DNA of 32,000 nt. Origin: Candidatus Heimdallarchaeota archaeon (lineage in GTDB: Archaea > Asgardarchaeota > Heimdallarchaeia > JABLTI01). Of this stretch, positions 14,094-15,878 are shown piece after piece (the first letter of the stretch is position 1; each line of letters starts with the position of its first letter). The DNA is taken from contig JAUWKS010000001.1 in the NCBI GenBank assembly GCA_030614005.1, positions 1 to 32,000 on the forward strand. Reading direction: 5' to 3'. The position numbers were made by a program, and so were the translations under genes. The notes under the pieces are model-generated. The model saw only the letters and a list, made by a program, of their open reading frames with translations. It was not told the origin of the DNA and did not search any database.

Positions 14094-15878
14094 TTAAATT
14101 GCTACCTTTTTTCTTTTTTTGTGAATAGTAAACACAAACACCATTAAAATACCTATAAAAACTGGTGAAAAGCCAATAATATAGCTATTATTTCCATCAT
14201 AGTATTCAAATCCTGCAAGCAACATTTGTTCTTTTGCTTTCGAGAGATTAAAAGAAAAAGGTTCATAGCTCTCATTGAATCCAATAGCAACATTTGGTAC
14301 TGAAGTAGCAGCAGGTGTACCAGCACCATTAGTTATTTGATTTTCTACATAATATTCTCTATCTATACAATGACTTATTGCATATCTGATGTGCTTTGCT
14401 GATTCTACTCCAGCAATAGGACAGAGTTCACCTGTTCCCAAATAGGGATGCTCCATGTTTATTCCAAATTCTTGAACAGTCGGTTCTTTAACAAATGAAT
14501 AATTAATTCCAGCAAAGGCAATTTCTTCCATTAGAGGATAAAAATTTGCATCTAAAAGATCCACTTGCCCAAAACTAAGTTGTTCCAGAGCAGCAAGTTT
14601 TGAGTCAAAATATTGAAATTTTATTGAATCAAAAATTGGAGTAATCCCAGTCCAATCATCAAAGAAGGGATTTCTTTCGAGGAGAATATAATTTTCTGTT
14701 GTGTTGTATTCTGCCAACTGATAGGGACCAGCACCAAAAAATTTCTCTGGATTAGTTATCATCCATTCTAACGCTTGAATACTATGGTTTTCTGGGGCTA
14801 TTCCACTCCAGATATGTTTTGGGAGTAGTTGTAACGCTAAATTCATTTCTTGAAAGATAGTTTGCTGTTTAAAGCTTATTCTTAATTCCTTGTCATTTAC
14901 CTTTGTAAATGAGTCATTGTCCCACCACGAATTATAAAGAGAATAACTTTCAGAATTGATATTTGGGTGTACTGCTAATTGATAACTAAATATCACATCA
15001 TCAGCTGTAATTGCTGTTCCATCTGCCCAAACAGCATTTGGATTTATTTTAATGGTCCAATTCAAGTTATCACTGCTGGTGTAAGAAGAAGTAATTCTAT
15101 TCCCCCAAAAGTGATTTCCAGCTTGTCTTTGTATCAAGCCATTAAATATTTGGTTTAACCATTGTTGGTCCTGAGAATAAGAGCCAACAAAAAATGGATG
15201 AAACGTTTCAAAATCAAAGGGTGTAGCATAAACAAAATCATTTTGTTCTGGAATCGACCAATTTTCCATTGGTTGATATTTAGAAGCCCATAATAACCCA
15301 TCCCAACCAGTAAACCCTTCTTTGTGAGGATAAATATTCATCGGATAATACAATCCCAATGTTGGTAAGTCGTCATACAATAATTTTTGAATTGTGTCTA
15401 TTATTTCAACTTTAGCTGAATCATTAAAAGCTTCAGCATAATTATCAATAGCTAAATCCATTTCAGGATTATCATATTGATAATAATTATCCACGGGGGT
15501 TCCGATAGTTGGTGAATCGTACAATCCAGTAGGATCATATTCGATGTCCCAAGAATAACCTATGCCTAATATATCATACCCACTTTGATTATAGCTGGGT
15601 ATTGGAAATGGCCCGGGAAAATACCAGGTTCTAGAGCTTATTTCTACCCAACCAGTCATAATTGTTTCAACCTCTATACCTATTTTTGGTAGGTTGTCTT
15701 CTAGATGCTGGTATAAACGTGGTGTTGAATAAGAATTTGGAACTAAGATATAAATTTTAAAAAATGGTTCAGGGTTAGTACTTTGCGTAGTGTTTATTTT
15801 TCCGGGCATTAAACTTGGAACAACTATTATAAAAAAAATAATGGTTATAGATAAAATCTTTCCAAATCTTTTTTTCAT
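14094..15878 (-). CDS. ABC transporter substrate-binding protein, family 5 (OppA/DppA-like), circularly permuted, with N- and C-terminal hydrophobic anchors
   Basis: SSDNLNWTIKINPNAVWADGTAITADDVIFS, GAGPYQL, RYAISHCIDRE, FNLSKAKEQMLLAGF, LPKIGIEV, YDNPEMD and QKLLYDDLP are all family-5 motifs, but in rearranged order. Many N-x-S/T sequons. Confidence 0.9.
   Translation of the reverse strand: MKKRFGKILSITIIFFIIVVPSLMPGKINTTQSTNPEPFFKIYILVPNSYSTPRLYQHLEDNLPKIGIEVETIMTGWVEISSRTWYFPGPFPIPSYNQSGYDILGIGYSWDIEYDPTGLYDSPTIGTPVDNYYQYDNPEMDLAIDNYAEAFNDSAKVEIIDTIQKLLYDDLPTLGLYYPMNIYPHKEGFTGWDGLLWASKYQPMENWSIPEQNDFVYATPFDFETFHPFFVGSYSQDQQWLNQIFNGLIQRQAGNHFWGNRITSSYTSSDNLNWTIKINPNAVWADGTAITADDVIFSYQLAVHPNINSESYSLYNSWWDNDSFTKVNDKELRISFKQQTIFQEMNLALQLLPKHIWSGIAPENHSIQALEWMITNPEKFFGAGPYQLAEYNTTENYILLERNPFFDDWTGITPIFDSIKFQYFDSKLAALEQLSFGQVDLLDANFYPLMEEIAFAGINYSFVKEPTVQEFGINMEHPYLGTGELCPIAGVESAKHIRYAISHCIDREYYVENQITNGAGTPAATSVPNVAIGFNESYEPFSFNLSKAKEQMLLAGFEYYDGNNSYIIGFSPVFIGILMVFVFTIHKKRKKVAI

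Follow-up and report, generated by a model that had tools for sequence, protein, structure and literature searches.

A circularly permuted family-5 solute-binding protein from a Heimdallarchaeota genome

The gene and its product

We analyzed a 32-kb stretch of DNA from a Candidatus Heimdallarchaeota archaeon (contig JAUWKS010000001.1), here called the window, and in it the open reading frame (ORF) at positions 14094-15878. Its translation, P0001, is a complete family-5 solute-binding protein (cluster C, PF00496, OppA/DppA-type) that is circularly permuted: the C-terminal third of the canonical chain now comes first, and the canonical N-terminal two thirds follow it. The parts of the gene and the one neighbor that enters into the discussion of its role are listed in Table 1. 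The segment made up of amino acids (aa) 35-210 contains the second half of the lobe-2 domain and the final strand segment, and aa 211-560, which end in the '..KAKEQMLLAGFEY' helix, contain lobe 1 and the extra domain as well as the first half of lobe 2.

Table 1. Positions in the window of the parts of the P0001 gene and of a neighboring RING-finger gene
Feature	Position	Strand	Basis
Whole ORF, P0001, 594 aa	14094..15878	-	Stop codon 14094-14096
aa 1-34, probable Sec signal peptide	15777..15878	-	MKKRFGK n-region, 15-residue hydrophobic core, possible T-Q-S↓T site
aa 35-210, old C-terminal third, now first	15249..15776	-	Match to A2 profile and to P0187
aa 205-214, junction of old ends	15237..15266	-	..ENWSIP meets NDFVYATP.., about 2 linking residues
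aa 211-560, old N-terminal two thirds	14199..15248	-	Pfam, VIA alignment, match to P0187
aa 561-566, very short linker DGNNSY between fold and anchor	14181..14198	-	Sequence; pLDDT <50 at aa 563-571
aa 567-594, C-terminal hydrophobic helix IIGFSPVFIGILMVFVFTI and basic tail HKKRKKVAI	14097..14180	-	Helix 572-593 in model
183-aa protein with two transmembrane helices and C-terminal RING-H2 (Prok-RING_1, zf-RING_2)	13101..13652	-	Domain matches

Order of the segments

An initial annotation of the window, made from the order of motifs in the translation, had proposed the circular permutation, and four lines of evidence bore it out. In a Pfam search, PF00496 (SBP_bac_5) matched aa 263-562 with 148.8 bits (gathering score 32.4); the match spanned profile positions 8-283 of 368, and the last quarter of the model was missing downstream. 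The N-terminal part matched PF00496 by itself in 16 of 30 sequences. When solved structures were searched with phmmer, AppA of Bacillus subtilis was returned in two blocks, a main one in which query residues 271-563 corresponded to chain residues 79-350, and a second, out of order, in which 59-192 corresponded to 380-502. A profile made from aa 35-210 of 30 family members (A2) matched 40 solved family-5 chains, each time at the C-terminal ~345-520; the best matches were to AppA (1xoc residues 360-505, E 1.8e-10) and YliB (residues 344-493, E 1.4e-9).

The AlphaFold2 model of the whole protein was compact, with a predicted local distance difference test score (pLDDT) of 86.8 and a predicted template modeling score (pTM) of 0.80. 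Its top Foldseek matches were all family-5 proteins, aligned over only ~370-390 columns with template modeling scores <= 0.50. In the VIA alignment, which depends on chain order, model residues 206-561 corresponded to residues 1-357 of Escherichia coli OppA (1ola, Z about 22) and 213-560 to residues 1-343 of DppA (1dpp), and aa 211-560 gave Z 20.5-22.4 against residues 1-~350 of OppA, DppA, AppA, MppA and NikZ. As these alignments begin at chain residue 1, the canonical mature N-terminus lies at aa ~206-213 of P0001.

The cleanest of the four lines came from P0187, a relative with the canonical order in the representative library. BLASTP gave two swapped blocks, P0001 213-566 matching P0187 28-393 (E 7e-42) and P0001 39-196 matching P0187 397-562 (E 1e-23), which jointly tile P0187 residues 28-562. 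P0187 runs uncut ('..AGFDY', loop, 'FFSITVLAPNT..') through the place where P0001 is cut; N213 of P0001 aligned with N28 of P0187, the second residue past its A-T-A↓A signal site, and '..ENWSIP' aligned with the end of the P0187 fold, directly ahead of a Ser-rich linker. It follows from these two alignments that the old ends were joined with about two linking residues at nucleotides (nt) ~15240-15260 (aa ~210-213), about 30 nt from the position near nt 15280 that had been annotated. The results showed that aa 35-210 correspond to canonical C-terminal ~345-520 and aa 211-560 to canonical 1-~350, and that the new opening of the chain lies within the second lobe, in the surface loop that follows the '..AGF' helix. 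The annotation's proposal of fused old termini and a new break in the loop behind the '..AG' helix was upheld.

The non-collinear, swapped matches that the initial annotation had named as a check of the permutation were obtained (P0187, AppA), and the sequence data excluded a full-length collinear alignment to characterized OppA or DppA proteins. P0001 matched the family model and contained all segments of the two-lobed fold and the extra domain. The segments did not stand in the canonical collinear order, as seen from the swapped BLASTP blocks and the structural alignment beginning at model residue ~206, and we therefore regard P0001 as a variant and not as an ordinary member of family 5. Since the rotation shifts the order by about one third of the chain, the PF00496 and NCBIfam models cover P0001 only partly, the best NCBIfam match scoring 84 bits against a cut-off of 650.

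Distribution of the permuted proteins

P0001 had 198 homologues, of which about 120 were full-length and collinear with it at 32-78% identity, and their labels were nearly all Heimdall- or Thor-type Asgard. A profile spanning the junction of the old ends (A3), which is matched collinearly by permuted proteins only, gave full-length matches in all 11 other genomes of the archaeal family to which the window belongs (f1) and in 28 of 30 genomes of a second family (f3), with 2-8 copies per genome. When one genome per prokaryote species was scanned, matches spanning the junction occurred only in Heimdall-labelled metagenome-assembled genomes and in two labelled Bathyarchaeia/Bathyarchaeota; bacterial matches were confined to one half. 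A library of 1.84 billion proteins yielded 78 clusters (50% identity) with E<=1e-30. The majority of the best 150 library clusters had one collinear stretch over the junction, whereas the two halves were about 480 residues apart in canonical relatives. We concluded from the 198 homologues, the conservation of the junction, the 78 clusters and the confident model that P0001 is the product of a real, selected gene.

The source genome (3.62 Mb, 90% complete) contained nine full-length and three partial PF00496 matches, all ending near profile position 280, and wherever the tail of the profile was detectable it lay upstream in the same frame. These copies fall into two subfamilies with a common cut site, one P0001-like, on contigs C71 and C59 with partial copies on C116, C40 and C31, and one divergent, on C16, C64 and C81 with four tandem copies on C101. 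The copies of the C101 tandem (G000:C101:16020-23625, L002) are all permuted, and the first is without an evident signal peptide; of the fold, a 193-aa frame on C40 (G000:C40:19052-19633) retains no more than the final ~137 residues, with the anchor after them, and this copy is probably truncated. Over the 12 genomes of the f1 family, none of 107 PF00496 matches extended past profile position 308: all ~107 family-5 matches are permuted, there is no canonical copy, and with 12 genomes in agreement the absence is not the gap of a single assembly.

In other Asgard families canonical copies were present, together with a second type of permutation in which Pfam profile positions 146-365 stand ahead of 2-141 in one 640-730-aa frame (G311:C7:15092-18794, L015; G311:C1:636515-638110, L017; G002:C1:2011423-2013009; and several loci in G066). 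The junction of old C-terminus to old N-terminus is the same in the second type, and the junction profile matches at positions 2-169.

Origin of the permuted order

A maximum-likelihood tree was built from the shared core of 63 proteins (359 columns); type-2 permuted proteins and concatemers, whose core region is itself split, were excluded. The tree contained at least 4 changes of order, three of which are forced by well-supported branches. None of 200 bootstrap trees allowed a single change, and the approximately unbiased (AU) test rejected a single permuted clade (difference in log likelihood, delta lnL, 81.5; p 0.00065). In all, we count no fewer than three or four switches of order. A canonical clade of 21 proteins was nested among permuted clades, which implies either repeated cuts in the same loop or reversion.

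Two proteins, P0144 (1217 aa) and P0157 (1524 aa), consist of two units head to tail, A'-B-A-A'-B-A, within which canonical and permuted units can both be read; this is the intermediate expected under permutation by duplication. P0206 (4308 aa) has two or more binding-protein units head to tail, plus PKD and Ig-like domains. All three come from the representative library and may be either intermediates of duplication and fusion or surface proteins with several heads. As the most likely origin of the permutation we see a tandem duplication of the gene and in-frame fusion of the copies, which would have been followed by trimming.

The two ends of the protein

P0001 has a hydrophobic N-terminal segment and a C-terminal transmembrane (TM) segment followed by HKKRKK, as the initial annotation described. 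All 30 homologues compared had a C-terminal hydrophobic 18-mer and then at least three K/R. At the N-terminal end the pre-domain length was 31-36 aa in most of the 30, and 24 of them carried a site of the signal-peptidase type, with small residues at -3/-1, located 1-2 residues from the first conserved residue of the fold (NPxPFF motif), for example A-Q-A↓A in relatives and T-Q-S↓T in P0001. The stretch between the N-terminal hydrophobic core and the fold is only about 10 residues long in P0001, and the model had pLDDT <50 at aa 22-33. The same two ends occur in Asgard relatives of canonical order, where the linkers are long and rich in Ser/Thr/Asp and the tails read PGY-TM-KKRK, whereas the linker ahead of the anchor is about 6 residues in P0001. 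Since these canonical-order relatives share it, the layout of the ends is generic and not a product of the permutation. Archaeal OppA-class proteins have been described with a signal peptidase I (SPase I) signal sequence and a C-terminal TM segment (PMC3387779), and P0001 appears to follow this layout, with an SPase I-type N-terminal signal and a C-terminal hydrophobic segment with a basic tail. To judge from these features, the N-terminal segment resembles a signal peptide that is cleaved off; aa 567-594 would form a membrane anchor or possibly a sorting signal.

Proposed role

We propose that P0001 is a permuted, exported, C-terminally anchored binding protein which probably feeds a distant importer of the Opp/Dpp type. 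P0001 would cross the membrane through the Sec pathway and lose its N-terminal signal peptide by cleavage around residue 33/34. The two-lobed domain would then lie outside the cell, held by the C-terminal helix via the very short linker, where it would close on its ligand and hand it to an Opp/Dpp-type ATP-binding cassette (ABC) importer whose genes lie in another part of the genome. The candidates are the full OppB/C/D/F set of C116, two paired permeases of C59 and the lone OppC_N-type permease of C87. Five oligo_HPY ATPases are also encoded in the source genome. On C116, a partial P0001-like copy lies about 4 kb from the nearest Opp gene, which encodes an OppD/F-type ATPase. Opp-type importers need a family-5 partner. 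OppC_N-type permeases occurred in all 12 genomes of the archaeal family, where only permuted partners are available, and this argues for a transporter role of the permuted proteins. In G066, a genome of the same class, the permuted P0122, collinear with P0001 (E 5e-19), is encoded between OppD/F and OppC/B genes, and P0262, the nearest relative of canonical order, is encoded at the head of a complete Opp operon. The function of the P0001 copy is probably ordinary.

The ligand may be a peptide or an oligosaccharide, with a peptide slightly favored. Residue 113, acidic in 29 of 30 members, lines up in MppA with the Asp of W-x-x-D-Y-N-E-P, a motif residue which we take to bind the amino group of the peptide; this would be a weak hint of a peptide ligand.

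Several observations weigh against this proposal. The window contains no Opp-type permease or ATPase, in agreement with the initial annotation (the ABC genes at 18998-21712 encode an ABC-2 exporter), and none was found within +/-10 kb of three other family members in other genomes, where the genes are likewise orphans, sometimes in tandem arrays. The nine full-length and three partial copies of the source genome face only two or three Opp-type permease sets, and we infer the partner importer of P0001 from context. The putative T-Q-S↓T site is weaker than the AxA of most relatives. Finally, the A2 part folded alone gave a pLDDT of 72.6 and a pTM of 0.46, and its structural matches were weak (Z <= 5.7), those to family-5 proteins falling at chain residues ~320-560; this model was too weak to serve as structural proof of the permutation and was dropped as such.

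Alternative readings

The chance that the gene is an artefact (a mis-assembly, a fusion of two neighboring gene fragments or a decaying pseudogene) is vanishingly small. Tandem arrays and truncated copies do occur in the genome, such as the four on C101 and the fragment on C40, but the frame is open over its 594 aa, the same order and ends recur in >100 independently assembled homologues, the structure model is confident, and a copy with 99% identity has been recorded on another contig. Nor did the ends of the protein sustain the suggestion of the initial annotation that it is doubly anchored, in which case the N-terminal segment would be an uncleaved signal-anchor that stays in the membrane along with the C-terminal helix, and the permutation would have served to bring the two ends to one face. 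The strong hydrophobicity of the N-terminal 15-residue window (mean Kyte-Doolittle 2.73) would suit such an arrangement, as would a site that reads T-Q-S and not A-x-A, and the new chain ends are indeed neighbors in the fold, because they are consecutive in the canonical-order P0187. This arrangement is nevertheless decidedly unlikely given the small -3/-1 residues 1-2 residues from the first conserved residue in 24 of 30 relatives, the distance of only about 10 residues from hydrophobic core to fold, the occurrence of the same two ends in canonical-order Asgard relatives and the described archaeal OppA layout of a cleaved SPase I signal and a C-terminal TM segment (PMC3387779). Within the proposed scheme of a C-terminally held binding protein, we consider it rather unlikely that the C-terminal helix is a signal of the PGF-CTERM/Heimdall-CTERM type which an archaeosortase removes, leaving a lipid-anchored protein. 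The genome does encode an exosortase/archaeosortase-family protein on C68 (C68:2814-3089, within a 509-aa frame, G000:C68:2790-3095, L013/L014). Of the two exosortase models used, TIGR04178 gave it 46.8 bits (cut-off 23) and the ArtA-specific TIGR04125 gave it 36.1 bits, under the cut-off of 75; a PF09721 exosortase search gave no match but its control missed Haloferax volcanii, so this result was set aside. The tail of the C16 paralogue reached 23.0 bits on Heimdall-CTERM (cut-off 24), the canonical relatives end in PGY-TM-KKRK, and P0001 has 'IGFS' at the corresponding place. Against this, the Pro of the PGF motif is missing in P0001, aa 545-594 gave no match at E<=10 to Heimdall-CTERM (NF045529), PGF-CTERM (TIGR04126) or any other sorting-domain model, and P0001 is not among the 32 Heimdall-CTERM matches of the genome at E<=1. 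The C68 gene and these 32 Heimdall-CTERM-like tails, two of which are above cut-off, suggest a lineage-specific system for sorting surface proteins. In the window, a 927-aa surface protein with LVIVD repeats and fibronectin-III domains (22211-24994, plus strand) has a weak Heimdall-CTERM match at its C-terminus (15.1 bits, E 0.19).

For the role of the orphan gene the initial annotation had offered either a distant transporter or a receptor; the location of relatives in Opp loci makes the former likely and the latter less so. That P0001 is not a transporter subunit but a surface ligand sensor or receptor, signaling for example to a membrane RING-finger protein, seems to us highly doubtful, even though the gene is an orphan in the window and in relatives, a paralogue on C64 is fused via a TM helix to a zinc-ribbon/RING tail, and a gene that follows 441 nt downstream in the same orientation encodes a 2-TM RING protein whose RING matches the C64 RING tail with 38% identity over 48 aa (pairwise E 7e-10). 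A receptor role sits poorly with the retention of Opp-type permeases in 12 of 12 family genomes whose binding proteins are all permuted, and with the location of P0122 and P0262 in Opp loci. The adjacency to the RING gene is also loose, and the pair is not tightly conserved: a 936-aa gene lies between the two genes in L099, and L100 has no RING gene. At the closest orthologous locus the gene between the binding-protein and RING genes is a 936-aa LVIVD gene. The broader idea that in this Heimdall lineage the permuted binding proteins, or a subset to which P0001 belongs, are surface ligand sensors coupled to membrane RING-finger proteins is very improbable; if true, the coupling would be a nutrient-sensing input to an Asgard ubiquitin-like system. 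In a milder version, the permutation may have been selected because it shifts the tether to the second lobe, on a very short linker, and thereby alters docking on the importer.

Neighboring genes

Beside the P0001 gene, a 116-aa frame on the plus strand (13705-14055) gave a weak SMP-30/gluconolactonase-like match (E 3.7e-4). It may be the remnant of a beta-propeller gene, a reading based on the related contig L100, on which a 729-aa beta-propeller gene adjoins the binding-protein gene. A DDAH/arginine-deiminase-like gene (16090-16845) and an iron alcohol dehydrogenase gene (11918-13099), both on the plus strand, are also found near the binding-protein gene in the related genomes L099, L008/L009 and L011; the synteny is weak and points to no obvious link in function.

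Significance and comparison with known binding proteins

The proteins described here show that one of the most thoroughly studied hinged folds has been permuted in nature more than once, and apparently in a reversible way. Since canonical sisters and tandem-fused intermediates survive, permutation by duplication can be traced step by step in real sequences. Heimdall-group archaea are close relatives of eukaryotes and are thought to live largely on peptides; in one family of this group every OppA-type binding protein is permuted, so that its uptake machinery would otherwise be misread. Standard models see only a part of these proteins (Pfam positions 8-283), and annotation and domain-based classification consequently under-describe them. 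Engineered circular permutants of binding proteins serve as biosensor scaffolds, and cut sites that are tolerated in nature are useful guides for such designs.

P0001 shares its fold, its sequence family and all its segments with the canonical cluster C proteins AppA of B. subtilis (1XOC), OppA of E. coli (1OLA, 3TCF), DppA (1DPP, 8Z1Z), MppA (3O9P) and NikZ of Campylobacter jejuni (4OET), with significant matches in sequence and structure for each of its two parts; it differs from them in an order rotated by about one third and in having no adjacent permease or ATPase. In the literature on circular permutation in solute-binding proteins, OppA and Asgard archaea we found no description of a permuted OppA-family protein, only the cluster B protein TpMglB-2 and engineered sensors. 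The former, Tp0684 (MglB-2) of Treponema pallidum, is a natural circularly permuted ABC binding protein, assigned to 'cluster Bc', and its authors raised tethering as a possible reason for the permutation (PMC4990184). Like P0001 it is a natural permutation of a tethered two-lobed binding protein, and it keeps ligand binding; unlike P0001 it belongs to cluster B (glucose/galactose type), is bacterial, has no sequence relationship to P0001, and is encoded in a cluster with its transporter.

The oligopeptide-binding proteins of Sulfolobus solfataricus and Aeropyrum pernix resemble P0001 in having an SPase I-type signal and a C-terminal TM anchor, but their order is canonical and their anchor is preceded by a glycosylated Ser/Thr stalk (PMC3387779, citing Elferink 2001, Gogliettino 2010 and Balestrieri 2011). 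Among Heimdall relatives of canonical order, the metagenomic P0187 and P0262 and P0215 (OLS21799.1, annotated 'AppA precursor') have, like P0001, the motifs LPKIGIGV, GW.LDWDPTGLY and HPY.GTG, a signal peptide and a C-terminal TM segment with a basic tail. They are 29-33% identical to P0001 in two blocks and differ from it in their canonical order and in the long Ser-rich linker that precedes the anchor.

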